Positions 7,262 to 30,093 are shown, counted from the first letter of the stretch. The stretch is 35,300 nucleotides of DNA from Bilabrum cf. latius (GCA_965178125.1 CBCXTV010000012.1:1-35300), one strand, 5' to 3'. A program made the numbers and translations. The notes: generated by a model not told the origin, from the sequence alone.

Positions 7262-7423
7262 GGTCCCAGAAAGGATGCGGTGCCACCTGGCCCAACACGA
7301 GCTGGTGTACTAGGCGTGCGCGGCGCTACGCCGAGTTTAAGGTGCCGATCAGCTTCCTCTGCAACCGCTACGCCACCTGGACCCCTGCCACACAGAGAGA
7401 CGCCCGGTCCCTGCCACACAGAG

Positions 7424-7532
7424 CCACGCGGGCGGGCGAGCGGCCGCCCGCGCGGCCGGGCGGCCGGGCGGCCGGGCGGCCGGGCGGCCGGGCAGGCGGG
7501 CGGACGGCCGGGCGGGCGGGAGGGCGGGCGGC
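7424..7532. repeat. (GGGC/GGCC)n low-complexity tract
   Basis: Direct reading; also present at about 28803-28910. Confidence 0.8.
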
Positions 7533-7661
7533 TCGCGTTACGAAGGTGGGCTCCAAATCCACACTCAATTGACCTAGGCCTTCTTTTGCCGATCTCTAAA
7601 GCGATCGCACCGCGGAGTGAGCGCCTCGCGTCGCGGGGCGATGGGCTCCCGCCGTCGCCGA

Positions 7662-8286
7662 CTACTCCAGGGGCATGCGCGTCACGTCTCCTGGGGCGTC
7701 AGTTTCGCCTAGCCGCCTCTTCTTTCCCTGCGTCTGCTGAGAACCTGCGGCTGCAGCAGCGTCGCGGGCTGCGGGGCTGCTTGACGCAGCCCCTGTCGCG
7801 CTGCTGGGGCCCAGCGTCCGGGACTCAGAGCCGGCGCCCTGCGGCTGGGGCTGGTGCTGCGGTGCTGCTGCACGCAGCCTCTGTGGCCCTGCCATGGCCC
7901 AACGCCAGCGGCTCAGTCGGCTGAGGCTGCTTCTGTGGCGCATCGACCTTCTTCGGCAAGCCCCATTTCTTCACATAGCTCCAAGCCCGAAAGTCCGCGT
8001 CCGTCCACCAGCCTTCCTTCCAAGTCCGCCAATCATTGCCGTCCCACTTCTGGGCGCGGCGCCAAGCTGCCTCCCACTCCTCCTTCTCTTGTGGGGTCCA
8101 GTCGCGCTCAGCCGCTGCAACGCCCTCGCCGCGGTGGCCTTCATCGACGCGGCCCGTCGTGCTCGCCTCGAGCCGAGTGACGCGGAGGCCCATCCTCGCC
8201 AAGTGAGCGCCCAAGTCGTCGAGGTCCGTCAGCTCCCGCAATCCAATGAACAGACCGCGCGTGGCCGAGGGCTCCTCCGCCGCCAT
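7662..8286 (-). CDS. Trp-rich hypothetical protein (~207 aa), 1-nt frameshift in this copy
   Basis: MAAEEPSATRGLFIGLRELTDL...WTPQEKEEWEAAWRRAQKWDGNDWRTWKEGWW. There is an extra C near 7837 relative to the intact copy at 29662-29039. Confidence 0.6.
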
Positions 8287-8700
8287 CTGCTCGCCGCGCC
8301 GGGAGCACAAGACGCAACAACAACAACAACAAAAGGTGTCCATATGTTTGCGAGCACACGAAACATTGGCATGCTGCCGGACCGCGGTCCAGGCTCTGGC
8401 GCGGACCAGCACTCCTCCCCCCGCGGCCAAGCGCTCGCGGACCCGCATCCAATGAACAGACCGCGCGTGGCCGAGGGCTCCTCCGCCGCCATCAGCTCGC
8501 CGCGCCGGGAGCACAAGACGCAACAACAACAACTTGCTCGAGAACAAAAAATACGGAGCCCGTCCGATGAAGGTGTCCATATGTTTGCGAGCACACGAAC
8601 ATTGGCATGCTGCCGGACCGCGGTCCAGGCTCTGCGCGGACCAGCACCCCCCCCCCCCCCCCCCCCCCCCCCCCGCGGCCAAGCGCTCGCGGACCCGCAT
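8241..8700. repeat. Two-copy tandem duplication spanning the start of the Trp-rich ORF
   Basis: ATCCAATGAACAGACCGCGCG at 8241 and 8447 (period 206). In the next unit it occurs at 29617 and 29855 (period 238). Confidence 0.85.
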
Positions 8701-9500
8701 GCTGCTCGGACCTTTCCTTCCATGCCCGGCGGGTGGAAAAACACGCACTGGTGAATGGTAGGTCCCCACGACCTGTTGGCGTTCCCCCTTTCGAGCACAC
8801 CTTTCGGGGCCAAAACCCGGCCCGCGAAGCGTCCCCACGAACTGTTGGATATCCCCTCTTTCGAGCACACCTTTCGGGACCAAAATCCGGCCCCGAAAAC
8901 AAGCCCGCCCAAGGGCGCTTTGCGTCACGCTACTGTGGGGTCCTCGAGGGGCCCATAAAACGAACCGGGGACGGGGCCCGCAAAGGGTCGCGACCGGGGC
9001 CCCTGTCAGGGGGCCGTGGGCAAGACTGATGTACACCTGGAGGTGAGGCCTTGCCTCGGCCCGACAAGCGAAGCGCTCCGTCTCCCCGCTCCACCCGGGT
9101 CGGCCCATGCGGAAATCCGGCGGTCGTGGCAGTTGGCGGTAGTCAGTGACCCAGGATGGGCCTCGAGATGGGGCCGGCGAAGCGCTCGCCCTGTGGTCCC
9201 TGCGATAGGAAGAGCTGGGAATGGCGGCCCGCGGGCCTGCTGCGACTAGAGCGTCAAAGTCGACAAGGTCCCCAGAAAGGATGCGGTGCCACCTGGCCCA
9301 ACAAGAGCTGGTGTACTAGGCGTGCGCGGCGCTACGCGGAGCTTAAGGTGCCGATCAGCTTCCTCTGCAACCGCTACGACACCTGGACCCCTGCCACACA
9401 GAGAGACGCCCGGCCCCTGCCACACTGAGAGATGCCGACGGCGCGCTGCCAGCGGAAGCACATTGGGCGAAGCGGACCCGGACATCCTCGAGACCCTGGA

Positions 9501-9692
9501 GAAATCCATGCCGGCGCCATCGAAATCCATGCCGCCGCCGCCATCGAAATCCATGCCGCCGCCATCGAAATCCATGCCGCCGCCACCGAAATCCATGCCG
9601 CCGCCGCCATCGAAATCCATCCCGCCGCCAGCACCGAAATCCATGCCGCCGCCACCGAAATCCATGCCGCCGCCGCCATCGAAATCCGTGCC
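9501..9692. repeat. Minisatellite GAAATCCATGCC(GCC)nA(T/C)C, 9 units of 21/24 nt
   Basis: Units start at 9501, 9522, 9546, 9567, 9588, 9612, 9636, 9657 and 9681. One minus frame reads MDF(D/G)GGG(G). Confidence 0.95.
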
Positions 9693-9876
9693 GGGCGTGC
9701 GCGGCGCGACGAGAGGCTGAAGATGCCGATCAGCTTCCTCTGCAACCGCTACGCCACCTGGACCCCTGCCACACGGAGAGACACCCGACCCCTGCCACAC
9801 AGAAACATGCCGACGGCGCGCTGCCAACGGAAGCACATGCCGCTAGTGTAGAAGGCCCGACGCCGCCGCCGCCACC

Positions 9877-10018
9877 GAAATGCATGCCGCCGCCACCGAA
9901 ATCCATGCCGCCGCAGCCATCGAAATCCATGCCGCCGCCACCGAAATCCATGCCGCCGCCGCCACCGAAATCCATGCCGCCGCCATCGAAATCCATGCCG
10001 CCGCAGCCACCGAAATCC
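9877..10018. repeat. Same minisatellite, 7 units
   Basis: Direct reading. Confidence 0.95.
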
Positions 10019-10739
10019 GGGCCGCGATCTCCCTGCGAGGCCCGGCCTCCTGATCGAGGCTGAGCGCGGACGATAGGAAGAGCTGGGAATGGCGCGCGGT
10101 CCGCGAAGGTGTGACGCGGGCACTTTCCACGGAGCAAGGCGCATTCGGTGTCCATGCCCCGGAGCGAAACCTTTTCGGGGATACGTGCGGATGAGGCTGG
10201 CCGATGCAGAATGAATGATATCATCGAGCGCACGACCTCGCTTGCCGCACCCGTTCTTCTACGCCGCGGCGTTAGATTCGGCGAGAGCGAGCTGCAACCG
10301 CCGAGAGCGGTACTACAGCTCCGTCTCGCCAGACACGACACTCAATCAATTTGCCCACCGTCACTTTCAATCAAATCCGCTAGAATTTCCAGCGCTGTGC
10401 GGGAAACGCGAGATTCAGAACGCGCACCTCCGAGGAATTCCTGTTCGAGACTTTCCCCTGGCTTTGACCCAGCACTGGTGGTTGAGGCCACAGCGGCGGC
10501 CGAGCGGGTGGCTGCAGCAGCGGCGGCCGAGTCCGCAACGGCGGCGGTTACGGCAGGGGACCCCGCAAACCTCTCTACAGGAACAGGAAACCGAACGCCA
10601 GGTTTGCTGGGTGGAGACCCCAGAACCCTTGGCCATGAAACCTCGCCATAGAAGGAAGGAGAGGCTCTTCGGCTTTATGACTCTGGGATAGGAAGAGCTG
10701 GGAATAGCGGGCGGGCAGAAGTCCGGCCAGCCGGCCACC

Positions 10740-10846
10740 GAAATCCACGCCGCCGCCGCCGCCATCGAAATCCATGCCGCCGCCACCGAAATCCATGCCG
10801 CCGTCGCCACCGAAATCCATGCCGCCGCCACCACCGAAATCCATGC
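10740..10846. repeat. Same minisatellite, 5 units
   Basis: Direct reading; units of 21, 24 and 27 nt. Confidence 0.95.
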
Positions 10847-11694
10847 TCGCGCCACACATGCCGCTGGTGTAGCAGGCATGCGCGTTGGACACATGCCTCC
10901 GGCGCCGCACGGCTTGATCTGGGAGCGGTTGCTCGAGGCCACCATGCCGGCTCCAGTGGAGGAGGACTCGCGCGGCTGCTCTCCCCCACGTTTCGCGCCG
11001 CCTTCGCCGCAGCGCTGGGCGCCGAAACCGCTGGCGCCACATCTACGCGACGACGCTGGCCATGGAACCTCTGCAAGGAAAGAAGGAACGGCGTTTTCGG
11101 CACTTGGACTCTGCGAGCCAGGCGCCGTTCACAGTTACGGCCCCGGTGCATGAAACGAGGCTGGAGCTCTTGGCCACTTTGGGCCAAGGATTGGCTATGA
11201 GGGTTGGGTGCAAGGGTCCTCGTGCCGCTCTGGCTTTCGTTGCCGCGAAGTGGTCGAAAAGCGGCCGTTTTCGGGAGCGGACTGGCGCCTCGCGACCTGT
11301 GGGACCTATGGCTCCGGTACGAGAAACGGACGGGAAGCGAACGACAGCACCTGGGCAGGGTGGCGGGGCACGGACTGCAAACGGACGGGAAACGAGCGGC
11401 AGGACCAGCAAGGCGGAGAGGGGCAGGATGCGGACTGGCCATGGAACCTCTGCAAGGAAAGAAGGAACGGCGCTTTCGCCACTAGGACCCCCCTGCCCAC
11501 CGGAAGGAATTGGTCTTCTTCGCCACCCACCGATGCTAGCCTCCCAAGCATTCCCGCAGCTGGCCCATATAATACAACGTCATCGCCGAGCTGGGGAAGA
11601 CCAAGCAGAAAGTGTTCTGCGAAAGGTTCTAGTTCAGCCGGCGGCCGCCGAGGGCAGTGAGTGAGCCACGCCGGCCGGCATGCTCGCGGCGATT

Positions 11695-11930
11695 CTACTT
11701 CTGTACGACTTTCCGCGGCTCGTCTAGAGGCGGACGGACCACTTGAGCTCTCAAGGCGGACTCCGAAAGCTCTTTCGAACAGCGATCCAGGAATACCTCG
11801 CACAGCGGGCTCACTTGGATCGCCCTGCCGCAGGTCACACACGGTTTGACGCTTGACCGGCGAGCTCTACGGCGCCTTCCGACGAGTCGGAATTCCTCCT
11901 CGTTTAGGTAGTATACGAGAGCCGAGTGAC
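11695..11930 (-). other. Possible short coding segment with a basic patch and CxxC
   Basis: YYLNEEEFRLVGRRRRARRSSVKPCVTCGRAIQVSPLCEVFLDRC; no clear ATG. Repeated at about 33089-33325. Confidence 0.3.
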
Positions 11931-12339
11931 GCGGAGAGCAGGTGGAAAAAAAAACGCACTGGTGAATGGTAGGTCTGGGGCTGGGCATCGCCGGACCGCG
12001 GTCCGGGCTCTGGCGCGGACCAGCACTCCTCCCCCCGCGGCCAAGCGCTCGCGGACCCGCATGCTGCTCGGACCTTTCCTTCCATGCCTGTTGGCGTCCC
12101 CCCTTTCGAGCACACCTTTCGGGGCGAAAACGCGGCCGGCGAAGCGTCCCCACGAACTGTTGGGGGACACCCTTTGGCCCGCAGATTTCTGGGCCAAATT
12201 CCGGACCCCAAAACAGGTCCGCCCAAAGCGTTTGTGGGCCGGGCTCTCATGCGGTTCTGTCGGGACCCAGAAAAGGCCCGCGACTGGTCCCAGTACCGGG
12301 GCCGCGTTCGGGCCCCCTTTCAGGGGCCATAGGCGCCTG

Positions 12340-14380: not shown

Positions 14381-16180
14381 TCAGGGTTGGGTCACGGGGA
14401 GGCACTGCTCGACATCCTCCACCCACATCGGCCTCCTGACACGCTGAAGGTACGAGTTCTCTGTCAACCACTCCGCGTCCGTTTCGCTCATCTTCGACAC
14501 CTCCTGTCTCCAGTTGTTTGTGGAGATGACGAGTTTCTTGCCTCCCACGAACACGCGCCGCGCGTGACAATTGGTGGCGCTTTGGTTGATGCCGATTGGG
14601 ACCGACTGGGCCTGAAATAATTTTTTGTTCGCTATGACTTGCGCGGGGCACGCTTCGTCAAATAGCAAGAGCTCATGTGTCATTTCGCAATACCCCTCAA
14701 AGTTCAACGGAACATTGCCGCTGCAGGTCATTTCGAAGACCTGGCCCTTGGGCACTAACGCCCGGCAGTACGCTGTTTTCCCGCGCTGCGATGGGCCGTC
14801 TAATACTAAAAAGTAATATCTGTCGCGCACAAATCCGTATTGGGACACCCACTCTTCGATCAAAGGGTACCGTCTCCACGGTTTTTTCACCTCGGACGAG
14901 TTCGCGGCGCGATATTCCAGGTAGCGTTCCATTGCCTCTTCTTGCCGGGCTTTCGCGTACTCCGTCAGCCATAGCAGATTCCGAGTGATGCCGTTAGGCA
15001 CTTTCCTCAGTTCCGCTCTCGCGTCAGCTATGGTTATTTTCCCGCTTTCTAGATGGCCTAAAATCCAGGTCCCAGTCACCTGGAAATCCTTATGGGGCTC
15101 ATGGGACCCTGCGGCCATGAGCGAGGTCACCTTCGGCATCAACAGGTAATACATGCCCGCGAAGTGGTTCCGACCAGAGCGTATGAGACGCGTGCAGTCC
15201 CCACTGTGGAATGGGGCTCCCCCTCGGAAAAGCGTGTCGTCGACTTTCACTCTCATTTGCCTGCCGCCGTAGGCGGCCACAAACGCATGGGCATGTACCC
15301 TCGTCGCCTCCGCCCCGCTCCGGTCGCAGAGCTCAAGACACCAAGCCATAAAACACTGCGGGTATTTCTCCCGGAATGCACTGGCCCAGGCCTCGAGGTC
15401 CGACCACAGAGCGAGGACGCGCGGATCCTGCCGCAGCCGTGCCGTCTCCGCCTGTCTCTCCTTTGCCACCTTCTCGAAACAGAAATCAGCAAGGGTCAAA
15501 ACCGCCGGGGCTTCCCCGGCCACCCGCATCGGGTCCGGCAAAGCGCTCGGATGAGACCCACCTTCCTGTTCCTCTTGTACACTGAGAGGCGAAGCGCTCT
15601 CTCCTGGAACCGCTGGCCGTTGCTCCTGGCCTGCCGCATGCGCCCCGGAGAGAAGCCCCCAACCCCCTTGCCAAGTCCAGACCGCACTGCGCATGCGGTG
15701 TATCCCCTCTTCGCCCCGGGACCTACCGGCGCTCAGCAACCGCGCAGCGATCTCGGCGAGGTCTGGGTACGCCCGGACGAATTTCGTCAACCGGTCCTTC
15801 CGCTGCGCGTAGTCCAGGTCCTTCAAGCACCAGTATTTCGTCATCGCGCTTTGCCGTTTGAATGTGGCTCTCCGATACCCCGTCTTCCTCTGCCACCAGT
15901 AGACGTACTTGTTGTGGGCCCGCTTGCGGTCCGCGCTGTTCAAAGGCTCGTCGGGGTCCTCGAGCTCCGCCAAAATGGCTTCGAGGTCGATGTCCACTTC
16001 TGCTTCCGCCTCAACATTTCCAGGCGCGTCCGGCTCGACCGCGGGCTCCGGCGCAGACGCGGGCACCTCCACAAGCTCCATCGCCTCGATGGCCGTCACG
16101 CGCCGGCGCTTTGGCGGCCGGGGATCCGAGGGCGTGCCATGCAAGGCTCCCGCGCGCGCCGACGTCGCGGGTTCCGCCAT
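14381..16180 (-). CDS. rep: CRESS-type replication initiator Rep (HUH endonuclease + SF3 helicase), 599 aa
   Basis: Motif I-like AVWTW, motif II VHAHAFV, motif III-like MYYLLMPK, Walker A LVLDGPSQRGKT, Walker B LLLFDE, motif C LVISTN, and C-terminal EWLTENSYLQRVRRPMW resembling gemini/genomovirus Reps. Start placed at ATG 16180 (MAEPAT); the ORF is open to 16492. Confidence 0.92.
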   Translation of the reverse strand: MAEPATSARAGALHGTPSDPRPPKRRRVTAIEAMELVEVPASAPEPAVEPDAPGNVEAEAEVDIDLEAILAELEDPDEPLNSADRKRAHNKYVYWWQRKTGYRRATFKRQSAMTKYWCLKDLDYAQRKDRLTKFVRAYPDLAEIAARLLSAGRSRGEEGIHRMRSAVWTWQGGWGLLSGAHAAGQEQRPAVPGESASPLSVQEEQEGGSHPSALPDPMRVAGEAPAVLTLADFCFEKVAKERQAETARLRQDPRVLALWSDLEAWASAFREKYPQCFMAWCLELCDRSGAEATRVHAHAFVAAYGGRQMRVKVDDTLFRGGAPFHSGDCTRLIRSGRNHFAGMYYLLMPKVTSLMAAGSHEPHKDFQVTGTWILGHLESGKITIADARAELRKVPNGITRNLLWLTEYAKARQEEAMERYLEYRAANSSEVKKPWRRYPLIEEWVSQYGFVRDRYYFLVLDGPSQRGKTAYCRALVPKGQVFEMTCSGNVPLNFEGYCEMTHELLLFDEACPAQVIANKKLFQAQSVPIGINQSATNCHARRVFVGGKKLVISTNNWRQEVSKMSETDAEWLTENSYLQRVRRPMWVEDVEQCLPVTQP

Positions 16181-16407
16181 GGCCCGCGCAGGCCCCGGGC
16201 GGGCCCGTCGCGCGCCTGGGGCGAGGGGCTCCGCATCGCGCCTGGACCGGGCGGCTATGCATGCGAAACAAGGCGCGTCTTGCGAAAAACCTCGATTTCC
16301 CCCACAATACCAGCCTTTGGCGGCGCGGGACCCTGGAAATTGCGGCACGTCCCGGAGAAGGCAGATGGGAAAGTGCATTTTTCGCAAGCCCTCTAGGCGA
16401 AACGGCA

Positions 16408-16690
16408 GGCTGAATCGGAGGCTGACACTTCCCGAATCCTTCCCCCCATATTGTTGCGCGATTTCCAGCCAATTCAGCCTCGGATGACTCAAATCCTTTT
16501 AAATATTAACACGCGAGGTGAGTCAACCAAGGCTGAAACTCACGACATTATGGGGGAAAGGAGTCAGCCTCGAAACGGGCACATCCGGCTGAATCCTTCC
16601 CCCCATATTGTCGTGCACATTTCCGCCCCGGGCGATTCAGCCAATCGCGAAACACCATAAGATCATGGCTCCAGCACCCCCTGAATCGGA
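16408..16690. promoter_or_regulatory. Putative rolling-circle origin: stem-loop plus iterons
   Basis: Arms 16473-16491 and 16519-16537 are complementary at 17/19 nt around a 27-nt loop containing TTTAAATATTAAC. Repeats of 25-29 nt lie at 16434 (direct), 16541-16569 (inverted) and 16587-16615 (direct). Confidence 0.65.
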
Positions 16691-16799
16691 CAAATGCCCA
16701 CCACATCCGGCTTCTCCGCTCGTTCCCCCGGCTAGGAGCCTCATTTTGGCGCGGTTTCCACATGGCTGCCGGCTCCTGCCCGCCCTGCCGTCGCGCACT

Positions 16800-17205
16800 T
16801 TCCGGGCCCGCCCCGGCCGCGGACCCCGTCCCCGCATTGGCCGCGGCCCACATGGCTGGCGACGGCCCACATGGCTGGCGGCGGCCCCGCGCCCCGCCGT
16901 CGCGCGCCGTCTGGGCCGGCTCTCCGGCCCGGCGTGCCCGGCCGGGTCCCGCCCGGGACGCGGGCCGCGTCCCGGCCGAGGCCGGGCCCGGCCGGGACGC
17001 GGCCCGCGCCTCCTCCCCCCCCCCCCCCCGCCCGGCCGGGACGCGGGCCGCGTCCCGGCCAGGGCCCGGGCCGCGGCCCGGGCCCAGAGCGGGTATCTGC
17101 CCGCGCCCGGCTTCGGCGCCGGGCTCGGGCGACGCGCCCGGGCCCGGCGCAGAAGCCGGGCCCTGCGGCCCGGGCCTCAGCCCGGGCCGCCGGCACGCGC
17201 CCCGC
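16800..17205. repeat. Extremely GC-rich tract of nested palindromes and short direct repeats
   Basis: CCGGGACGCGG(G)CC x3, CCACATGGCTG x3 (first copy just left of the tract, at about 16758) and many CCGGGCCCGG. Confidence 0.7.
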
Positions 17206-17653
17206 CCCATCTTTGGCGATGCCGTCCAATCACTCAAATCCAAAACAGCCAAGGGCACGATCCCCGCATGCCGCCCACCGTGGCCTTTCCCACCTCGCTG
17301 TCGCTTCTGCCCGCAATGTCACGACGACCGCAAAACAAGTCGCTTCACAGGCGGACCTCTCAGGTCCCACAGCCGCACTCACGAGCGTGGCAACCCGCAT
17401 TCAGCCACGAAAATGCAACGAAAGCGAAGGCAAAAATGCAAGCAACGCGAACGGCCTGTTCCACAACGGCGCATGCGAGAACTCCATGGGCACTGCCGGG
17501 CCACTGCACATCCCTTGGGACCCGCTTTTCGGGGCGCACCGGAAAAAAATAGAGGGCCGGACCGGTCCGCGGCGTTTTGCCACGGGCGGCTTTGGCGCCG
17601 TCGCGGGACAGACGTCGGCGCCAGGCGCCAGGGGGGGGAAAGGCGTAAGCGCC

Positions 17654-18073
17654 TCACTCGTCGCAGGCCCTCGGCGGCACTTCGCCGCCCACCAATCCGG
17701 CGGCCAGGCGCGCGCCCTCGGCGGGCTCCGTCGCGCCCGTCGCCGCGGCAGGTGGAGGCGAAGCGCTCTCCCCGGCGGCGGCGCTGCCCGCGCTTGAAGA
17801 ACTCGGCGCGGCCTCCCGTTGGTCCTTCCGCATGAGAAGCACGCTGACGAGGTCGTCGTCGCTCATCAAGCGCGCGCGCTTCTTCAGGCGGCTCTGGCGT
17901 TTCCTCGCGTTCTTCACCTGGCGGGTCAAGTCCTTCTTCACCTTGTTCGCCGCGATCTGCTCCTGCTTCAACCTCTCAATCTCCGCCCGGGCCGGATCCG
18001 CCGGCAGCGCCTCGAAGACGCTTGCCATCGCCGCGGTCACGACCGCGGAGTCTCCGGAGCCCGCGGACGCCAT
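17654..18073 (-). CDS. Small basic coiled-coil protein (139 aa)
   Basis: RAEIERLKQEQIAANKVKKDLTRQVKNARKRQSRLKKRARLMSDDDLVSVLLMRK. The ATG at 18073 overlaps the transposase 3' end by 37 nt. Confidence 0.7.
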   Translation of the reverse strand: MASAGSGDSAVVTAAMASVFEALPADPARAEIERLKQEQIAANKVKKDLTRQVKNARKRQSRLKKRARLMSDDDLVSVLLMRKDQREAAPSSSSAGSAAAGESASPPPAAATGATEPAEGARLAAGLVGGEVPPRACDE

Positions 18074-20037
18074 GGCAACAAGCGGCGCCCGATGGGCAAG
18101 CGGCGGCGGCCAAGGGCAAGGGAGTCGTCCTCTCCGACGGCTGCGGCGACTGGGGACGCGGCCACTCTCTCGGGCGCCACCACATGCGAGCTGCTCCGCA
18201 GGCGGCCCACCCAGGGATTGGACCCTCCCGCTCGTTCTGCGGCGGCGTAGGGCGCGGCAAGCGCTCGCGCTTCTTCGCCCGCCCTGGCACGAGGATATCC
18301 GAGTACAAGGGGAAACAAGCGATCCACAGGGATCATGCGCCCGCGAGGGAAGATAGACTCGAAGCCGGCCAGCGCGGGGAGGCAGCCGCCGTCGAGGAAG
18401 CCCTCGGGCGCCGGGCCGAGCTCCTCTAGGAATCGGTTCGACGTCGGCCACGCCCCATGCAAGCCGCAGAGGGCGAAGGCGTTTCGCCAGTCCCGGCCAC
18501 TGACCACCCCGGTCACCGCGTCCGCGAGGACCGCCAGGAGATCCTCGATGGGGAGCTCGGCGTCGCGGCGACCCAACTGCTGCCCTTCCATGAGGACCCG
18601 GATGCGGTGCTTTAGGGGAGCGAAGACGGCCACATCGCATGGTTGGAGCCACCGCGTCGCGAGCGCCGGCAAGAGGTGGTAGTGGCATCCGGCGCGCGCC
18701 ACCGCGGCGGCGACTTCCTTCGTCGTGTGGACCGGGCAGGCGTCCATAGAGAGGATAATGCAGCGATCCAGTGCGACGGGCCTGAGGCTGGCCTTCAAGA
18801 CGTCCATAATCTTCGCGAACCCGGCACCGTCCAGCCAGGAGCTCTTCTGTCGCAGCAGGACGACCCGGTCGGTGCGGCCAGCGTTGAAGGTGGCCGCGGC
18901 AGCAGCAGGGACGAGGCGATCGTTGACGACGAAGATTTGCGGCAGCAGGGGTTGCACTGCCGCATCGTCGCACACGAAGCAGATGTAGGAAAGCGCGCTC
19001 CGTCGAGCGCGCAGGGACGCTCTCTGTTCCGGCGGCTGCCGGCGGCCGGGAAAGCGCTCGGTCGCAATGGCGCCGGGCCTCGGCGGCGGGAAGAACTTGA
19101 CGGAGCTCTCGTCCATGTTAATGCGCAGAACAGGGCGGCCCCCGGCGCAGCGGCGGGCGAGGAAGCGGTCCCACTGGAATGTCGCCAGGGCCTGTGCGAG
19201 AGCCGGGTCCCCGGCGGGCCCGCCGGAAAAAAAAAGGGGCCGTTTTTTTGGCCCCGAAATCGGGGCCGCCTATTAAAATCACAACACAGGGGGGGCCAGA
19301 AAACGGCCCCTGTTTTTTCAGGCCGGCCCGCCGGGGGACCCGCTTTTTGGCCGCCTCGGGGCCCGGTTCCCGCGAGCCTTCGCGCGCAAAGTGTCCCGGT
19401 CCAGGCGCGGCCCCATGGTAGGCGCCCGCAGCCTCACTCGCCAGCGCCGCCGCCAGCGCAGGATCCATTTCCGCGGCGGCCTCTCAACACGCCCCCCGAT
19501 GTGGCCGCCGGCCCCAACGGCGGCGGAGGGCCCGCCGGGGAGCGCTCCGCGCCATTGCCGCCAGAGGTATGTGTAGGTCGGCGCGAGGCCGGCGTCCATG
19601 TTCAATCGGGCCACCCACTCGCACAAGCTGCGCTCCCGGAGGAAGCGTTGCGCCGCCACCGCTGTGCGCTCGTCGGGAGGCCCGGCCACCGGCGCCGCCT
19701 GGGGCACCGCGCCGGGCGCCTCCGGATCCCGCGCAGGCAGGGCCGCGGCATGCGGCTGGGGCGAAGCGCTCCCAGCGTCGCCGGACCGCCTCCGCTTGCA
19801 GTCACGCTGCCGGAGGTACTCCGCTCGGGCCTCGGGCCCACCGGGGCCCGGCAGGGACGCCGCAATGTAATCCGCGACGGCCTGTGTGCGACTATCTCGC
19901 TTCGGCCGCGGCCGGGCGGCGCTGCGCTTCTGCTCCTTCGCGCGGCGGAGCGCGGCCGCGACCGCGCGGGCCTCCGTCGCAGCCCGCTCCCGCTCCGCGA
20001 CCAGGTCCTTCAGGGAGGCTCGAGGCACCGCCGGCAT
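18037..20037 (-). CDS. pogo/Tc5-like (DDE_1) transposase, two exons (20037-19378, 19191-18037), ~604 aa
   Basis: Exon 1 has a CENP-B-like HTH (ERSLCEWVARLNMDAGLAPT...KWILRWRRR). Exon 2 has catalytic INMDES, ILSMDACPVH and WLQPCDVAVFAPLK, with 35 residues between the second and third Asp. The splice is in frame. Confidence 0.88.
19192..19377 (-). other. Predicted GC-AG intron (186 nt) in the transposase
   Basis: AAG|GC donor and CAG|G acceptor give DTLRAK-ALATFQWDRFL...RINMDES in phase 0. Confidence 0.8.
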
Positions 20038-21650: not shown

Positions 21651-21765
<115 letters not shown>

Positions 21766-22759
21766 TCAGACTATCAGCGTCCGAGGACGCAACCTCGAAA
21801 GAGGCATCTATGATGATTATGATCTCGTTGGGAAACTCTCAAATGGAAGCCCAAGAAAATACGACCGCCAAGTCATAAGGCGACAGTGCCAAACAGAAGA
21901 CGGGCACACACATGAAACACCGAGCACTGTCACATTGGAGGCCAAGCGCTCTCCGGCCAAATGCGACATGTGAGTACGTCGTGTCATAGCATCCCCTTAC
22001 CTGTCAATGTGCAAGGCGAGTCCCCCTCTGGTGTCCCTCAGCCTACCATTCGACCGTCAAAGAACCGCCTCGGAGCTGGGCTGGGCCTTCACTTCAACAT
22101 AGGGACAAGCACTGACTTGAGACACGCTGCAAACACATGTTGTTCATGCCAGTAGGCTGTGCCATGTCAACACCTTGCTGCCAGTGAGGATGCCCATCCT
22201 CTTTCGTTCTACAAGCCCCTGCGCATACCACTCGACCGTCAAAGATCGGCCTCGAAGCCGGGCCCGGCCTTCACAGCAACATAGAGACATCCACGGAAAT
22301 GAGACACCCCGGAAACACACATTATTCATGCGAGCGGCCTGCGCAATGTCCACCCTTAGCCGGTCAAGGTGCCATGCCGAGTCACTTGTTCAAGCCTGCG
22401 CGCCTGCCACTCGACCGTCAGAGATCGCCCTGGAAGCTGGGCAAAACTGTCCCGCGCCCGGGCCTGGCCATGGCCCGGGCCCGAGGGCCCGGGCGCCAGG
22501 CCCGGGCCAGAGGCCGGCCCGGGCACCGGCCCGGGCCCAAAGTTTGACGGCACGAGCAAAGATGTCGGACCTTACTTCTGCGGGCGGGACGTCCGCCCTG
22601 TCGGCCCGCATGGGCAGTTCAGTCCGCCGCCCGGGCGCTTCCCGGGCAGAGGGCGCGCGCTCCCGCGACGGGAGGCGAAGCGCTCACCCTTCGGCGCGGC
22701 AAAGCGCTCGCGCGGGCGAGGCGAAGCGGCCTCGGGCGGCCAAGCACCGGCCGCCGCAC

Positions 22760-25478
22760 TCATCCGGAGGAGAGCTCCTCGTCGGACTCGAGGCCCTCCT
22801 GCGCCCAGTCGGGGCCCAAGAAGTAGTCCCACAAGTGCCGGTTGTAGAGCTGCTTGTAGAGCAAGGCCTCGTGAGGCGCCGCCGTCCGGGCGTCGTCGAC
22901 CTCGAGCGCCACCGGCTTGTACCAGGTAGTGTCCGCCTTGGTGTTGGTGGGGGGGGGGAAGAGGGGGGAAATGGGTGGGTGGGCTTTGTGGTCGCGGGTG
23001 GGGCTGAGCGGGGGGTTTCTGGGGAGGCAAAGCGCTCTCCCGGTGAGAGCAAAAATCAGAACGCCAATGACCGCAACCGCCTCGGCCAACTCAGCGAAGA
23101 CCCGGCGCTGGTAGACCGAAATGGCCTGCCGGCGCTTCCGCGCTTGCTCCTTCGTGAGGCGATGGACCACCTCGTCGAGCGCTCGCTCGTCACACACAAG
23201 CTGCTCCGCCAATCGGGTGATAGGGCTGGGTCTCCCCCCCGGGGTGGTGCCGTAGCCCTCGGGATCCTCTCTGAGCATCGCCGGACCGCGGTCCTGGCTC
23301 TGGAGCGGACGAGCTCTCCTCCCGCGCGGCCAAGCGCTCGCGGACCCGCATGCTGCTCGGACCTTTCCTTCCATGCCCGGCGGGCGGCCTGCTCTTGCTG
23401 GTCCGGGCTCACAGGCGGGCCGATCCATTGACCATGCCAGTCAACCCACCATCTCCGCCACAGCCTCTCCGACCAGGCCGGGTCGGAGACTGCCGTCGGG
23501 GGGAGCTGCGTCTTCCAGTGCAGCCCCGGAGCGCTCAAGTTGAGCTTTTCAAGCCACAGCGGTGGCCCTTTGTCCGTCCACCCGCAGAGGTGCCGCTCGC
23601 CCTTTGCGCAACGGAACCCCTCCCCGACCCAGCTATTCTTCCAGCTGGAGTTGCGGACCCATCGGCCTTTCTCGCACCCGCTCACATGGGCTTCGTACGA
23701 CCCGGCGCTCGGCCATAAATAGCAGGCACCTACGGTGTTCTGCGCCCCGCCGGCGAGCCACTGGGCCAGGATAATGTCCAGGTGATTGGGCGTGGACCTT
23801 TCGAGCACCTCAAGAAAGGCCGCCGCGAAAGTTTTCGTGAAGGCGACGAGGGTCGTGGCATGGCCCGGCTGCCACTTCCTATGGGATTGGCCCTCCCAAC
23901 AAAGCCACACGAAGTTCCCACGACCTTGGCGCGCCGCTGCGGTCGCGATGTGGATCAGATCCACGAGCTCCTGCGACGGTTTCGCCTTCGGAGGCTTGTG
24001 CTTCCATCCCAGGAAGCACCTTTGCTGCGCCTTTTTGGACGCTTGGGACACCCGGAACTTTTTCGCCTGCCGCTCGTGCCCGTCTGTGCCCGGCGCGGCC
24101 GGCGGGTCTCTCCCCTCGGTTTTTTTCGGAGGTCCCAACGGTCTGGGGCGAAGCGCTCCCAGCTGAGCCCGGCAAAGCGCTCGGGGCGGAGGGCGTCACT
24201 TGGCCGACGTCGTTTTCCTGTTTTTCCTCCTTCGTCGTGGGTGCTGTCGGCCCCGCAGCAGCGGGTGGGGAGGAGGCGGGAGGCGAAGCGCTCTCCCCGG
24301 TTCGCTCCGGCGCGCTCGGTTGCGCGCTCTGGGTTCCCGAGGGGGCGCCCCGAGGTTCCGACCCCGCCCCTGTCGCCGGCTCTTCCCTCGTCGACACGAA
24401 GAGGGCGCGGACGTCCTCGTGGAGCTGCTGCGAGATCGTCTTGCCAGCGAAGCTGCCCCAGTGTCGGTTACTGTCCGCCCAGCAATCCTTCTCGTACATG
24501 CGGTAGTCGCCTTCGGCCAGGATGAACAACGTGTCTTCCGGCAGCCGGGGGTCGACGCAATGCCGAAGGAGTATGTCCTTGGATGGAAATGGTTATCAAA
24601 ACAGGCCTGCAGGCCCCCCTCCCCCCCCCCAAAAAAAAAAGGCCTCGAGGCCCCAAGATTTTTCTCTGGTCTAATCGTCCTTCCAGAAGTGGAAGACGGC
24701 GTGCCTCCTCTCGCAAAGCGGGCTCTCTTGACGCCGCCCGTCCCACCATTTCCACACACTGGCAGGGGCGGAATCTCATCGACATGTACGGGAGGGTCGC
24801 GACCTCGGCTTCGTCCTCGTGGGTGAGCGTCATCACCTTGAGGCATGGCTCGGGTGTCCAATGGCCCCGGGGCTAAGCGCTCCCGGTTCACCGGGCCACG
24901 CGCTCGCGGCGCTGCCGGGGCCAAGCGCTCCCGGCTTCACTGTCGCCTTCTCGGGCCCCCGCACCCCGCGCCACTTCCCACCCGGCCCGGCGCTCCCACC
25001 CCAAGAAGGCCCTCCGCCCGTCCCGCCCTGTTCCCGGATTCCCCCCCGCCCCACCGCCCGCCCGGCCCGGCCCGAGGGAACGGACCCACCCAAGACATAT
25101 GCACGACAACAACATGAACCTGCACTGGCCGCCCTTCGATGACCTTCAACGTCGACTGCGGGTTGAACCTCGCCGGGGCGCTGTTCAACTGCGTCCGCGC
25201 GTACTCCGCCGCGAAGAACTGCAGGTCATCATGGATCTTCTTCGCCGCCGGGCTCGTCGGGTCCAATGCTTTCCCCATCAGCTTCTGCCACTCCTGCTCA
25301 GTGTAGGCCTCGGCGCCGCCGGACTGGTAATTCGTGACTTCGCGCACGAACGCCATCCTCGTCTCCTTCTCCGCCTCCTCCCATCGCTTCTGGCGCTCGT
25401 CCGTCGTGAGGAGGTTCTCCCTCTGGTGCCGGCCTTTCACCTGCTTCAGCAGTCGTCGCCGGACCCGCCGGACGCCAT
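22760..25478 (-). pseudogene. Second copy of the GT25-like gene, with different frameshifts
   Basis: Near-identical to 1346-4083, with indels near 23320, 24125, 24540 and 25450. Confidence 0.5.
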
Positions 25479-25678
25479 GGCGGGGCGCGCTCGCGCCCCA
25501 AGGGGTCCACTGGCGGCTAAGCGCTCGCCGTGCCGACGCGGCTGAACGATGGCCACGAGCGCGGGCGGAGGCGACTCACCAGACACCGGACTTTCCTTGT
25601 CATGCAAGATGCCCGGGAAGCCCCCGGCATGGACGGCAAAGCGCTCGCCCTGTGCCGGGGTGATCTCCGTCCCTGAGA

Positions 25679-26037
25679 TCATGGCCAGAGGACACCCTTC
25701 TGCTTCAAATTCACTTCGCGCAAGCGTGCCCCCCCCCCCGGCATGCCCACACCAAGCCATGCACACCGCTGCTGGAACTCCCAGCAATCCCTCCCTGCGA
25801 CGGGCAACTTGGCATTCGGATGCCTCCGGTCCAACCACAGCATGTAACTTCGCAAGCGTTTGTCTTGCGTCTCGAAATTCCATGTCTCCCCGGCTGTACC
25901 GGCTCCAAAGGCCCCATCATGCCATCGAGCAACCATGGCTGTCCAGGACCCCGCTTTTGCACCCATGCTAGGTACTGCCTCAGGCCCTCCGGGCCCGCTC
26001 GCCCGGAGAGTTCGCCCATGAGCCCTGACTGCGCCAT
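25679..26037 (-). pseudogene. MAQSG ORF copy with a frameshift
   Basis: 1-nt deletion near 25890 relative to 4285-4644. Confidence 0.55.
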
Positions 26038-28161
26038 GTTCGAACCGCCGCGTCTGCAGACACCCTTGTTACTCCAAGCGTGACGACCTCATGCGTCGAC
26101 AAGCTCGAATGCGAAAAGAACATGACGCACACGGAGACCCACAAAAAAAACACATGCAACTACCTGAGGTCGATGGAGAGGTTTGCCCTGAACGCCACAG
26201 CCACCAAGGGGTCGCACCCAGCCAACAACGCGTTGCCACCCAGGTGTCGGGACAGTCCCGGCGCTGGTCTTCCTCCGCACCGCGGCCAAGCGCTCGCGCC
26301 TCCGGGTGCGCGGCGAAGCGCTCGCGCTATCCATGTACTTTCTCGGTTGCACCATCGCCGGCGCGGGGCCGGCAACAGCAGCGCGCCCGCATGGGACGAC
26401 CTTTCCGGCACGCAGGCGGCCCCGATTTTGGGGCTGGATTTTGGCCCCGAAATCTGCGGGCCAAAGGGTGTCCCCCAACTGTTGGCGATCCCCTCTTTCG
26501 AGCACACCTTTCGGGACCAAAATCCGGCCCCGAAAACAAGCCCGCCCAAGGGCGCTTTGCGTCACGCTACTGTGGGGTCCTCGAGGGGCCCAAAAAACGA
26601 ACCGGGGACGGGACCCGAAAAGGGTCGCGACCGGGGCCCCTTTTCAGGGGCCGTGGTCTCATGAGAGCTAGACTGATGTTCACCTGGAGGTGAGGCCCTG
26701 CCTCGGCCCGACAAGCGTCTCCCCGCTCCACCCGGGTCGGCCCATGCGGAATCCGGCGGCCGTGGCAGTTGGCGGTAGTCAGTGACCCAGGATGGGCCTC
26801 GAGATGGGGCCGGCGAAGCGCTCGCCCTGTGGTCCCTGCGATAGGAAGAGCTGGGAATGGCGCCTCTTCTTTCCCTGCGTCTGCTGAGAACCGGCGGCTG
26901 CAGCAAGCGTCGCGGGCTGCGGGGCTGCTTGACGCAGCCCCTGTCGCGCTGCTGGGGCCCAGCGTCCGGGACTCAGAGCCGGCGCCTGCGGCTGGGGGCT
27001 GGTGCTGCGGTGCTGCTGCACGCAGCCTCTGTGGCCCTGCCATGGCCCAACGCCAGCGGCTCAGTCGGCTGAGGCTGCTTCTGTGGCGCATCGACCTTCT
27101 TCGGCAAGCCCCATTTCTTCACATAGCTCCAAGCCCGAAAGTCCGCGTCCGTCCACAAGCCCTCCTTCCAAGTCCGCCAATCATTGCCGTCCCACTTCTG
27201 GGCGCGGCGCCAAGCTGCCTCCCACTCCTCCTTCTCTTGTGGGGTCCAGTCGCGCTCAGCCGCTGCAAACGCCCTCGCCGCGGTGGCCTTCATCGACGCG
27301 GCCCGTCGTGCTCCCTCGAGCCGAGTGACGCGGAGGCCCATCCTCGCCAAGTGAGCGCCAAGTCGTCATCACCTTGAGGCATGGCTCGGGTGTCCAATGG
27401 CCCCGGGGCTAAGCGCTCCCGGTTCACCGGGCCACGCGCTCGCGGCGCTGCCGGGGCCAAGCGCTCCCGGCTTCACTGTCGCCTTCTCGGGCCCCCGCAC
27501 CCCGCGCCACTTCCCACCCGGCCCGGCGCTCCCACCCCAAGAAGGCCCTCCGCCCGTCCCGCCCTGTTCCCGGATTCCCCCCCGCTCCACCGCCCGCCCG
27601 GCCCGGCCCGAGGGAACGGACCCACCCAAGACATATGGACGACAACAACATGAACCTGCACTGGCCGCCCTTCGATGACCTTCAACGTCGACTGCGGGTT
27701 GAACCTCGCCGGGGCGCTGTTCAACTGCGTCCGCGCGTACTCCGCCGCGAAGAACTGCAGGTCATCATGGATCTTCTTCGCCGCCGGGCTCGTCGGGTCC
27801 AATGCTTCCCCCATCAGCTTCTGCCACTCCTGCTCAGTGTAGGCCTCGGCGCCGCCGGACTGGTAGTTCGTGACTTCGTGCACGAACGCCATCCTCGTCT
27901 CCTTCTCCGCCTCCTCCCATCGCTTCTGGCGCTCGTCCGTCGTGAGGAGGTTCTCCTTCTGGTGCCGGCCTTTCACCAGCTTCAGCCAGTCGTCGCCGGA
28001 CCCGCCGGACGCCATGGCGGGGCGCGCTCGCGCCCCAAGGGGTCGACTGGCGGCTAAGCGCTCGCCGTGCCGACTTTCCTTGTCATGCAAGATGCCCGGG
28101 AAGCCCCCGGCATGGACGGCAAAGCGCTCGCCCTGTGCCGGGGTGATCTCCGTCCCTGAGA

Positions 28162-28518
28162 TCATGGCCAGAGGACACCCTTCTGCTTCAAATTCACTTC
28201 GCGCAAGCGTGCCCCCCCTGGCATGCCCACACCAAGCCATGCACACCGCTGCTGGAACTCCCAGCAATCCCTCCCTGCGACGGGCAACTTGGCATTCGGA
28301 TGCCTCCGGTCCAACCACAGCATGTAACTTCGCAAGCGTTTGTCTTGCGTCTCGAAATTCATGTCTCCCCGGGCTGTACCGGCTCCAAAGGCCCCATCAT
28401 GCCATCGAGCAACCATGGCTGTCCAGGACCCCCGCTTTTGCACCCATGCCAAGTACTGCCTCAGGCCCTCCGGGCCCGCTCGCCCGGAGAGTTCGCCCAT
28501 GAGCCCTGACTGCGCCAT
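28162..28518 (-). CDS. MAQSG ORF copy with two compensating indels
   Basis: Same N- and C-termini; the internal segment is in a shifted frame. Confidence 0.45.
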   Translation of the reverse strand: MAQSGLMGELSGRAGPEGLRQYLAWVQKRGSWTAMVARWHDGAFGAGTARGDMNFETQDKRLRSYMLWLDRRHPNAKLPVAGRDCWEFQQRCAWLGVGMPGGARLREVNLKQKGVLWP

Positions 28519-29038
28519 GTTCGAACCGCCGCGTCTGCAGACACCCTTGTTACTCCAAGCGTGACGACCTCATGCGTCGACAAGCTCGAATGCGAAAAGA
28601 ACATGACGCACACGGAGACCCACAAAAAAAACACATGCGGTCCCAGAAAGGATGCGGTGCCACCTGGCCCAACACGAGCTGGTGTACTAGGCGTGCGCGG
28701 CGCTACGCCGAGTTTAAGGTGCCGATCAGCTTCCTCTGCAACCGCTACGCCACCTGGACCCCTGCCACACAGAGAGACGCCCGGTCCCTGCCACACAGAG
28801 CCACGCGGGCGGGCGAGCGGCCGCCCGCGCGGCCGGGCGGCCGGGCGGCCGGGCGGCCGGGCGGCCGGGCAGGCGGGCGGACGGCCGGGCGGGCGGGAGG
28901 GCGGGCGGCTCGCGTTACGAAGGTGGGCTCCAAATCCACACTCAATTGACCTAGGCCTTCTTTTGCCGATCTCTAAAGCGATCGCACCGCGGAGTGAGCG
29001 CCTCGCGTCGCGGGGCGATGGGCTCCCGCCGTCGCCGA

Positions 29039-30055: not shown

Positions 30056-30093
<38 letters not shown>

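Follow-up and report, generated by a model that had tools for sequence, protein, structure and literature searches.

The window, the whole 35.3 kb stretch of DNA analysed here, carries a set of genes whose order on the minus strand is ORF741′, DDE transposase, coiled-coil ORF, origin, Rep, ORF741 and a truncated DDE copy (Table 1). All four features named in the preliminary description (a Rep-helicase, an origin-like region, a coiled-coil ORF and a DDE transposase gene) were present on this strand at the positions it gave. The gene set belongs to a head-to-tail repeat with a period of about 21.4 kb, as determined by self-blast and blastn.

Table 1. Positions of genes, repeats and other features in the window.
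Feature	Position	Strand	Basis or remark
Second DDE copy, part	1..160	-	Identical to 19370-19529 (blastn 100%); left window edge
Repeat A, 11.9 kb	338..12226	-	ORF741-family gene and internal modules of ~2.2-2.5 kb; downstream of Rep in the unit
ORF741-family main ORF, orphan	1158..3383	-	Conserved in related elements
Short conserved coding stretch, possible upstream exon of ORF741	3725..3802	-	tblastx
Intact 599-aa Rep (HUH Y1 endonuclease plus SF3-type helicase)	14384..16180	-	Motifs, AlphaFold, Foldseek
Origin-like region: iteron hairpin, second hairpin (~16470-16537), third iteron copy	16420..16640	-	Fold z-scores, repeats, loop motif
GC-rich nested palindromes and C-run	16900..17200	.	Inverted repeats I1, I3, I9-I15; between coiled-coil ORF and origin
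Small basic coiled-coil ORF, 139 aa	17654..18073	-	Directly after DDE gene
DDE_1 (pogo/Tigger-type, DD35D) transposase, catalytic ORF	18037..19269	-	Pfam DDE_1, relatives
Transposase gene, N-terminal ORF	19321..20037	-	Same frame as catalytic ORF
Poly(A) run, ~110 nt	21654..21763	+	Between DDE-side spacer and repeat A′
Repeat A′, second copy of A	21754..33624	-	Self-blast

The Rep reading frame is open from stop to stop over 14381-16498, and its first plausible ATG lies at 16180. In an alignment of 45 Rep-family rows, T169 (motif I, LLTxNG), H296 and H298 (HUH), Y345 and K350 are invariant in all 45; among the helicase motifs of the same alignment, the Walker A residues G467-K468-T469 are nearly invariant, and D508-E509 (Walker B) and N555 (motif C) are invariant, giving the order I, HUH, Y, Walker A, Walker B, C. 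Motif III has the spacing YxxxxK instead of the usual YxxK, and about 125 residues, a low-confidence insert among them, separate motif I from HUH. Between two variants pN/pS was 0.19 over 188 codons, with 39 of the 62 differences at third positions. The family is large, with 2021 cluster representatives at E≤0.001 and 529 at E≤1e-30. Searches for Pfam Rep and helicase families (Viral_Rep, Gemini_AL1, RNA_helicase and the like) gave no match up to E 10 for the window Rep, its two halves and 8 relatives, nor any at E≤0.01 across the 45 rows, and no PDB sequence match was found for Rep.

The AlphaFold model of Rep (pLDDT 82.4) had AAV2 Rep68 (423 columns), papillomavirus E1, vientovirus Rep and the PCV2 Rep ATPase as its top PDB matches in Foldseek, and its helicase domain matched SF3/AAA+ folds. 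About half of the 50 best BFVD matches are nameless; most of those with names are Reps of CRESS-DNA or uncultured viruses covering the entire target, for example a 310-aa genomovirus Rep (335 aligned columns, E=1.6e-11), alongside three parvovirus NS1 proteins and one papillomavirus E1. TM-scores of 0.2-0.4 in BFVD are low and rmsd values high (14-27 Å), as is expected for the full model if the orientation of its two domains differs. The Foldseek comparison proposed earlier thus returned CRESS-DNA virus Reps as the best viral structural matches, and the predicted fold and motifs support a CRESS-type Rep. The label "geminivirus-type" is too specific, there being no Pfam Rep family match and a geminivirus Rep ranking only 28th among the structural matches.

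Upstream of Rep, the origin-like region contains the 20-mer CAATATGGGGGGAAGGATTC three times, twice exactly and once inverted with 3 mismatches (expected 0). The 221-nt region folds with a z-score of -6.6 and the 81-nt hairpin with one of -4.4. The origin loop reads GTGTTAATATTTAAAAGG, and TAATATTTA lies in the loop of the second hairpin (~16470-16537). Three lineages have the loop motif TAATATT upstream of Rep, the motif of the window being shared by L011/L004 and by L003. In L011, TAATATTAA occupies the loop of a hairpin with a 71-bp stem (z -19.5 for 420 nt, -9.0 for 71 nt); in L003 it lies between 67-nt inverted repeats that form no tight hairpin (z 0.68). L009/L008 have GATAGTAT in a hairpin loop, so that an origin motif is present in four of the four lineages with sequence upstream of Rep, while the iterons differ, each lineage having its own set. 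PMC1669733 gives the geminivirus nick site as TAATATT/AC. Conservation of this origin-like hairpin motif is established across these lineages, and the putative cognate origin combines, as in CRESS replicons, a stem-loop bearing a nonanucleotide of the TAGTATTAC/TAATATTAC kind with iterons. The adjacent palindromic segment (16900-17200) is very deep in the summed depth of all four sequencing runs and is therefore taken to be low-complexity sequence that also occurs elsewhere.

The catalytic ORF of the transposase matches Pfam DDE_1 at E=2.1e-5 (24.6 bits, cut-off 22), and DDE_1 was recognised in 17 of 18 aligned relatives (best E=1.5e-10). D176 and D212, the second and third catalytic aspartates, are invariant; 35 residues therefore lie between them (DD35D). 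Three in-frame stops and a 139-nt palindrome (19204-19342) separate the N-terminal and catalytic ORFs. Since the stops split two ORFs of the same frame, an intron is required, and splicing of the gene is plausible from its sequence; none of 42 GT/GC..AG candidates stands out. A related protein, P0013, aligns through residues 139-601 to 19653-18280, across both ORFs, and the N-terminal ORF also matches L018 811-1173 (E=1.7e-4) and L015 1630-1860 (E=1e-10). Pfam gave no match of any kind in 19318-20076, a CENP-B/psq-type HTH included; the region is conserved among relatives. The coiled-coil ORF uses a different frame from the DDE gene, with an overlap of 34 nt at the end of the latter. Its Pfam matches are weak coiled-coil ones only (DivIC E=0.074); residues 357-424 of another protein, P0014, match 18025-17822 at 53% identity (E=2e-17), and P0014 joins the coiled-coil relative to a DDE relative.

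The ORF741 family is an orphan gene family of 550-740 aa with no Pfam or PDB sequence match; its relatives include P0211 (E=2e-75) and P0212 (E=8e-73). Since the first Met of the window ORF is residue 98, an upstream exon is likely. A candidate at 3725-3802 shares 13 of 26 residues by tblastx with L004 7855-7932, at the same relative position, but the evidence for it is weak because BLASTP of longer ORFs gives just E=0.013.

Whether these genes form one element was examined in other lineages. In a related element, represented by metagenome contig L004 and overlapping contigs of bin G001, Rep (L004 271-2205) is again followed by an ORF741 relative (8704-10476) and then by a DDE gene, all co-oriented. 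Contig C297 of this bin overlaps L004 10986-12274 over 1289 nt, ungapped and at 99.6% identity, and its DDE relative (C297:2050-3117) falls at ~13.0-14.1 kb on the 15.86 kb L004 contig, on the strand of Rep and ORF741. Because the L004 sequence compared comprises 12,274 of the contig's 15,860 bases and DDE was placed through the C297 overlap, this second full linkage rests on two joined assemblies. Protein identities to the window are 31% for Rep (E=4e-45), 31% over 325 aa for ORF741 (E=5e-27) and 35% for DDE (E=1e-49). The L004 Rep has RVHARAF (HUR) where the window has RVHAHAF, so its nuclease may differ or be inactive. The 6-11 kb stretch from Rep to ORF741 is unconserved between the two elements, nor was a capsid-like gene or any other known one recognised. 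A third lineage, L015, retains an ORF741 relative (138-1453), the DDE N-terminal region (1627-1962) and the start of the DDE core (2149-2250). Rep, ORF741 and DDE are thus complete in two lineages only, and partial in one more. The transposase phylogeny leaves the related element's DDE outside a 13-row group (support 92/98) to which the window's DDE belongs; the two Rep-linked transposases therefore span most of the DDE clade.

At this level of comparison it is established that the genes are real and intact and that their order and orientation are kept across diverged elements. The proposal that Rep and transposase are parts of one large element, not a recent nested insertion, is supported by the recurrence of co-oriented Rep, ORF741 and DDE at 31-35% identity and of ORF741 and DDE in L015, and given these lineages the linkage is not peculiar to this locus. 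The proposed size of 15-21 kb likewise agrees with the repeat period of the window and the length of the L004 contig. A further argument for one element, a shared AAGCGCTC signature, fared less well. This motif occurs 68 times on the plus strand and 0 times on the minus strand (expected 2.5, sd 1.5, largest 7 in 100 shuffles), scattered beyond the two genes through all 35.3 kb, flanking repeats included; since it is window-wide and not enriched in the related element (one match per locus), the argument is weak.

It might instead be supposed that an endogenous CRESS-like Rep and an unrelated pogo transposon became neighbours by chance and were co-amplified by segmental duplication. The contigs carrying the 19 DDE relatives found in the protein collection at E≤0.001 measure 1.5-3.8 kb, roughly what a solo pogo element would occupy, and are too short to reveal linkage to Rep. 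At this single locus, a search around the DDE segment and around the unit as a whole revealed neither terminal inverted repeats nor target duplications. The sole inverted repeat found there, a C-run/G-run pair 3.2 kb apart (17010-17035 and 20203-20228), does flank the DDE and coiled-coil genes; it is, however, low-complexity sequence, and two more diverged lineages, which come from other samples, show the same gene order. Chance adjacency is accordingly disfavoured and appears very improbable.

The repeat structure bears on how such an element might be propagated. Repeats A and A′ match at 98.9% (338-8330 and 21754-29706) and 97.9% (8333-12226 and 29742-33624), and a further internal module after A′ (33543-35300) is a copy of 5081-6838. 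The left DDE copy is 5′-deleted, lacking the equivalent of 19530-21570 and with it the 5′ half of the N-terminal ORF; positions 160-242 then equal 21571-21653 (100%, blastn), and an unrelated 95-nt stretch (243-337) stands in place of the poly(A) run. Repeat units run throughout the window, in which no host flank or host gene is visible. We therefore only infer integration, and an episome assembled as a concatemer could have given such an array. A nuclear plasmid or virus genome that is extrachromosomal, was laid out as a concatemer by the assembler and uses its DDE protein in some other role, such as multimer resolution or domesticated DNA binding, would be in keeping with this and with the fact that metagenomic relatives were binned with a bacterial genome. 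Three other Rep contigs, and the related contig as well, begin ≤28 nt from the outer edge of the palindrome, as would a circle or array broken at the hairpin, but such starts prove nothing, as assemblers break at real internal palindromes too. This alternative seems unlikely: no capsid or partition gene was recognised, and because the units differ structurally (the 2 kb deletion, poly(A) versus 95 nt, module number, 98-99% and not 100% identity), diverged tandem copies are a better fit than a single circle that was read twice.

All 30 bins of 11000-21640 were matched by contigs from the four runs, which carry four organism labels, and many of these contigs are 90-95% variants. The source of the element is a GC-rich microbial eukaryote. 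Variant copies in such numbers, together with a Rep, a hairpin and head-to-tail copies, could be the work of a rolling-circle transposon, a Helitron analogue with an SF3 in place of an SF1B helicase, in which Rep would be the transposase, the hairpin both origin and terminator, terminator read-through the source of arrays, and DDE a long-standing passenger or accessory and not the integrase. HUH transposons make no terminal inverted repeats or target duplications (PMC10288648), and none were found here. Yet the DDE gene, at 35% protein identity, is still intact, co-oriented and in the same position, which is not what one expects of a passenger; no HUH transposon group described in PMC10288648 has an SF3 helicase; and an insertion present as a single copy with defined ends was not observed. 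We regard this explanation as improbable.

Taken together, these data probably describe a single family of multigene elements, 16-21 kb in length and belonging to microbial eukaryotes, with a core of Rep, hairpin origin, ORF741 family, pogo-type DDE transposase and basic coiled-coil gene. From this gene set we infer rolling-circle replication, DDE-mediated integration and the formation of tandem arrays. Rep would bind the iterons and nick the TAATATT hairpin loop, and its own SF3 helicase would drive rolling-circle replication to yield circles or concatemers; the DDE enzyme would insert double-stranded copies into chromosomes, or move them. Head-to-tail arrays would arise from inserted concatemers, or later by unequal exchange between internal modules. 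We found no published account of a conserved gene set that unites a virus-like rolling-circle Rep and its hairpin origin with a transposase of the cut-and-paste type.

The Rep module resembles those of CRESS-DNA viruses (Cressdnaviricota) and plasmids in its single-tyrosine HUH domain with SF3 helicase, its motif order, and its iterons and TAATATT loop hairpin. It differs in lacking Pfam Rep/helicase and PDB sequence matches, in its YxxxxK motif III and in the ~125 residues between motif I and HUH. CRESS replicons measure 2-6 kb, whereas the units here are 16-21 kb, with predicted spliced genes and a DDE transposase in the gene set; a search of 7 large ORFs returned no capsid-like family, and size and gene content set the element apart from the small, capsid-bearing circular ssDNA genomes of CRESS-DNA viruses; no relatives were found in IMG/VR with the patterns searched. 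With pogo/Tigger elements (DDE_1, Tc1/mariner superfamily) the transposase shares a DDE_1 domain with DD35D and a region N-terminal to the catalytic core; at the locus studied here, neither terminal inverted repeats nor a TA duplication came to light, Pfam detects no HTH in the N-terminal ORF, and the gene belongs to a much larger conserved set with Rep.

Like Helitrons and Replitrons, the element would place a Rep-class HUH nuclease in a eukaryotic genome, with hairpins near an end and an increase in copy number; neither group is known to carry a DDE transposase. The Rep of Helitrons has two tyrosines and is accompanied by an SF1B helicase, and Replitrons are without a helicase (PMC10288648). 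The one invariant tyrosine (Y345) and the match of the helicase to SF3/AAA+ folds, as opposed to SF1B (Pif1-like), do not fit a Helitron, nor does the helicase domain in Rep fit a Replitron. Polintons/Mavericks and casposons follow the same logic of a replicon combined with an integrating enzyme. Teratorn, too, as presented in PMC10175614, joins a self-replicating module to an integrating enzyme in one large element. In those systems the replication module is a herpesvirus one or one with a protein-primed or family B polymerase, and the integrase is of the piggyBac, retroviral or Cas1 type, whereas the element described here would pair a rolling-circle Rep with a pogo-type DDE transposase.

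The window has a G+C content of about 65% and is dominated by repeats, with clean open reading frames being sparse. Self-comparison identified a large repeat, A (338-12226), which recurs as A′ (21754-33624) at 98-99% identity and an offset of about 21.4 kb, and which contains modules of 2.2-2.5 kb. The features of the preliminary description were confirmed; all are on the minus strand and lie between the two copies (12227-21753). The first 160 bases of the window are identical to 19370-19529, within the transposase gene, and bases 160-242 are identical to 21571-21653, indicating a second transposase copy to the left of repeat A; this copy has no equivalent of 19530-21570 and its 5′ part is gone. 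Minus-strand features follow one another as ORF741′, DDE, coiled-coil, origin, Rep, ORF741 and truncated DDE, where ORF741 denotes an orphan gene family. The repeat units are arranged head to tail, each with a copy of the transposase. Such an arrangement might also be that of a non-integrated nuclear plasmid or virus assembled as a concatemer, and no element ends, target duplications, host flanks or circular forms were seen; the units are structurally unlike (one has lost 2 kb, about 110 consecutive A residues stand against 95 bases of unrelated sequence, and 33543-35300 is an additional module), and this alternative is considered improbable. For an element resident in chromosomes, the array would be the product of concatemer insertion or unequal exchange. 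Repeats of 21 and 24 nt alternate in arrays inside repeat A (9464-10065 and 10709-10889) and also at 30926-32279, with 28 copies in family D1 and a gene-strand reading of HGFRWRRR-type repeats. No Rfam match was found anywhere in the window.

Features of the window, with coordinates in the direction of reading where an arrow is given
Feature	Coordinates	Strand	Remarks
Transposase N-terminal ORF	20037>19321	-	
DDE catalytic ORF	19269>18037	-	
Basic coiled-coil ORF	18073>17654	-	139 aa
GC-rich palindromic stretch			between coiled-coil ORF and origin-like region
Origin-like region	16640>16420	-	
Origin element 1			long hairpin, two inverted copies of a 20-mer
Origin element 2			second hairpin, loop reads GTGTTAATATTTAAAAGG
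Origin element 3			third copy of the 20-mer
Rep	16180>14384	-	
ORF741-family ORF	1158-3383	-	741 codons, in repeat A

The preliminary description had proposed that the Rep and transposase genes belong to one element, and had named persistence of the linkage across diverged loci as a check, which was carried out here. Translated comparison of the window with ten metagenome loci bearing Rep relatives gave an unexpected second match, between ORF741 and positions 8704-10476 of metagenome contig L004 (31% identity over 325 aa, E=5e-27). In L004 this relative and Rep share a strand, the relative being 6.4 kb downstream; in the window ORF741 is likewise on the strand of Rep, 11 kb downstream of it. 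Two more ORF741 relatives exist; the family had no match in Pfam, PDB sequences or IMG/VR, and its structure model, built from 5 sequences, was unusable for a fold search (pLDDT 32.2). A small ORF upstream of ORF741 matched L004 7510-7998 at E=0.013 only. A tblastn search of the first 11 loci with 19 DDE relatives found nothing. The L004 sequence examined comprised the first 12,274 of the record's 15,860 bases, and the DDE gene of this related element lies past that point and was found only through genome bin G001. Contig L011 of this bin, which is labelled planctomycete, is 99% identical to L004 2-3801. Searching the bin identified two Rep contigs, two contigs with ORF741 relatives and, on contig C297, a DDE relative (E=2.4e-49). 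Positions 7-1295 of C297 correspond to L004 10986-12274 at 99.6% identity without gaps, and the DDE gene follows this overlap at 2050-3117 on the same strand, which places it at about 13.0-14.1 kb of the L004 record. The overlap thus gives the related element the order hairpin, Rep, ORF741 relative and DDE, all co-oriented. No further overlapping contig was found when the bin was searched with the ends of contigs C297 and C254.

Contig C352 carries, in the same order, an ORF741 relative, the N-terminal region of the DDE and the beginning of its core; the contig belongs to a more distant lineage, its ORF741 relative being 40-48% identical to that of L004. Protein identities between the related element and the window are 31% for Rep, 31% for ORF741 and 35% for DDE. 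A tree of 18 DDE proteins has a supported group of 13, the window's among them, and places the enzyme of the related element outside it, so that linkage to Rep is found on both sides of most of the depth of the clade. The evidence for linkage comprises two full lineages and one partial one, with one join across two assemblies; the other members of the DDE clade are all on contigs of 1.5-3.8 kb, too short to tell solo from Rep-linked copies. Chance juxtaposition of two elements is unlikely given that Rep, ORF741 and DDE are co-oriented in the related element as well. The sequences thus favor one predicted composite element, supported by conserved synteny.

A second argument for a single element had been the octamer AAGCGCTC, taken as a signature shared by its genes. 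This octamer occurs 68 times on the plus strand and never on the minus strand, versus 2.5 expected (for example at 530, 1264, 15541, 15592 and 35208), in coding and non-coding parts, flanking repeats and the 73-nt repeat family D12 (members include 1873, 8376, 11990, 29784 and 33387). Its wider gene-strand consensus, GAGCGCTTnGCC, is found in many unrelated contexts. Because it covers the whole window the octamer is unable to tie Rep to DDE, and since the related element (L004/L018) shows no enrichment of it, it belongs to this lineage or to the host genome rather than to the element family; as an argument for one element it was set aside. Candidate explanations are a polar motif spread across the genome, membership of small inserted repeats, and a signal linked to introns. 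Contigs of all four public sequencing runs examined join 11975 to 12087, with 7 other letters replacing 111 nt, and the skipped stretch contains one D12 copy bearing the octamer. The skipped stretch has the look of a small mobile insertion that only some copies carry. One D12 copy lies within the ORF741 reading frame, at a place where the related protein is shorter.

Rep is 599 aa long from its ATG. No Pfam family matched it, nor did any PDB chain by sequence or any of 72,556 plasmid and 50,697 phage records by tblastn. PHROGs likewise gave no match, the sole hit being to a clamp loader in 3 of the 45 rows of the family alignment, and none of 23 stretches found in IMG/VR with two peptide patterns was confirmed. 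The protein nonetheless has a family: four relatives were recovered by word-based search, and in a profile search of 1.84 billion representatives 2021 passed E<=0.001, 529 of them with E<=1e-30. Columns invariant in an alignment of 45 relatives (T169 in LLTxNG, H296, H298, Y345, K350, GKT, DE and N555) are exactly those expected of a predicted HUH-Y1 nuclease fused to an SF3 helicase. A re-check of the helicase confined to residues 432-588 (VIA) did not separate SF3 from AAA+. The AlphaFold model was confident (pLDDT 82.4, pTM 0.69) except at the N-terminus and at residues 185-222 (15515-15628), an insert of about 35 residues with pLDDT <50 which is absent in distant relatives, is kept in a 69% identical relative (P0002), and contains both in-gene octamer copies; either a disordered loop or a short intron that keeps the frame could account for it. 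In its predicted working and modeled fold Rep is like a CRESS-type Rep; curated sequence profiles do not recognize it as one. The original label of geminivirus-type was more specific than the data allow, as no curated profile matched. Motif II of the L004 Rep (L004:271-2202) reads RVHARAF versus RVHAHAF in the window, the second His of HUH being replaced by Arg. The gene is still under purifying selection: two variants in one metagenome, L004 and L013, differ mainly in the third base of codons (pN/pS 0.19 over 188 codons). A strict regular-expression scan for Rep motifs caught 3 of 12 sources and is silent on the remainder.

Three consecutive elements make up the origin-like region, which precedes the Rep ATG by about 250-450 nt. 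The region folds with a z-score of -6.6 and the second hairpin with one of -4.4, and the wild-type sequence of the window's hairpin loop is TAATATTTA. Distant Rep genes (29-33% identity) are preceded by the same arrangement. L011 adds 192 nt to L004 and begins with a perfect 71-bp stem whose loop contains GTTTAATATTAAAC (z -19.5 over 420 nt and -9.0 over 71 nt). L009 and L008, two other Rep-bearing loci, have palindrome arms of 160-177 nt and a central loop containing GATAGTAT, and L003 has TAATATTAA between 67-nt inverted repeats with no tight hairpin. The upstream motif was thus present in all four lineages with sequence upstream of Rep, and beside the hairpin each of the four has repeated words of its own. 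The geminivirus nick site is given as TAATATT/AC in PMC1669733, TAATATT being its first part. A reading of the palindrome as two transposon ends set back to back around a central TA was also considered; it does not fit L003, where the motif is off-centre, and may hold for the other lineages. Four Rep-bearing contigs of different assemblies begin no more than 28 nt from the outer edge of the palindrome (L011 1-167, L003 1-346, L009 5-345, L008 28-389), as is expected from assembler breaks and also from terminal hairpins of a linear molecule. At the GC-rich palindromes of 16680-17034, summed contig depth was hundreds to thousands of times that of neighboring sequence in three of four runs (38296 versus about 3-14 in run X8); this segment is simple sequence common to much other DNA of those samples.

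The catalytic ORF matched Pfam DDE_1 above the curated cut-off, as did 17 of 18 aligned relatives, and the second and third Asp of the triad are invariant and 35 residues apart. By sequence the window transposase is a predicted DDE_1 enzyme of the pogo/Tigger kind. Its C-terminus has the same conserved motif as the end of four relatives, which makes the coiled-coil ORF a separate downstream gene; a gene call in P0014 fuses relatives of both, so that the two travel together elsewhere too. The N-terminal ORF is conserved in relatives and shares the frame of the catalytic ORF, a layout also found in the related element. Three stops and a 139-nt palindrome (19204-19342; 52-nt arms, 77% complementary) lie exactly between the two ORFs, and P0006 has the arms, in translation (KKRPLFF.. 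/ ..FFFRPGPPG), at the corresponding position. A predicted intron is needed between 19321 and 19269, and it seems to carry a conserved hairpin; a splice-site scan gave 42 equally possible introns. A search for terminal inverted repeats or TA duplications around the DDE segment and the entire unit found none, returning low-complexity pairs only.

The 9.5 kb stretch was present, in part or mostly, in 20 public runs from 10 studies, which carry several organism labels and include marine sediment and microbial mat metagenomes. In the four runs examined 11000-21640 was fully covered by contigs, with many variants of 90-95%. These runs (X3, X5, X6 and X8), under four organism labels, had this interval at about 98-99% identity with many shared differences from the window; either one microbe is in all samples or the element is common to several hosts. 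Rep and DDE had comparable contig depths and repeat A was about 2-3 times deeper; such depths rank nothing and were not taken as evidence. One joint, from 14675 to 19700, was disregarded as having one contig with 28 nt on the shorter side. With the patterns used, IMG/VR yielded no relative. A dinoflagellate spliced-leader motif was absent from the 10 loci searched.

In the most economical reading, Rep would drive rolling-circle replication from the hairpin origin and so amplify the element, and the DDE enzyme would take it into chromosomes or move it within them, a mechanism of replication and integration that could reasonably be inferred. It is possible, and tentatively proposed, that the window represents a new class of mobile element in eukaryotes, either a transposon that replicates itself or an episome that integrates. 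A CRESS-like Rep and hairpin origin would serve rolling-circle amplification, a captured pogo-type DDE enzyme would take the element into and out of chromosomes, and an orphan gene would be the third member of the core. If true, a CRESS-type replication module and a DDE enzyme kept together over deep divergence would constitute a new architecture and a living example bridging CRESS-type replicons and cut-and-paste transposons, showing small replicons growing to 16-21 kb and becoming residents of nuclear genomes. The 2021 cluster representatives of the Rep family would then be replicases of widespread, overlooked elements of aquatic protists, giving function and genomic context to a protein family of >2000 sequence clusters unnamed in curated libraries. 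The nick site, iterons and two enzymes are all defined in sequence, making the question directly testable.

No description of a DDE transposase combined with an HUH+SF3 Rep in one element was found in the literature, supplements and subscription journals being outside the scope of the search; on this basis the element is rated as falling outside described classes. Classes of eukaryotic transposons are few. Polintons and casposons are composite replicon-transposons, like the proposed element, but are built of modules other than a rolling-circle Rep and a pogo-type DDE. The same applies to Teratorn, a composite replicon-transposon of other modules (PMC10175614). Mriyaviruses combine a helicase with a separate HUH nuclease in virus genomes of 35-45 kb (PMC11253617). 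In another reading, which is doubtful, Rep would itself transpose a rolling-circle element and DDE would play an accessory part: the HUH nuclease would be shared with known rolling-circle transposons, whereas the four groups of HUH transposons treated in PMC10288648 include none with an SF3 helicase. As described there, Helitrons have an SF1B helicase and Replitrons none, and the SF3-type helicase predicted for the window Rep sets it apart from both.
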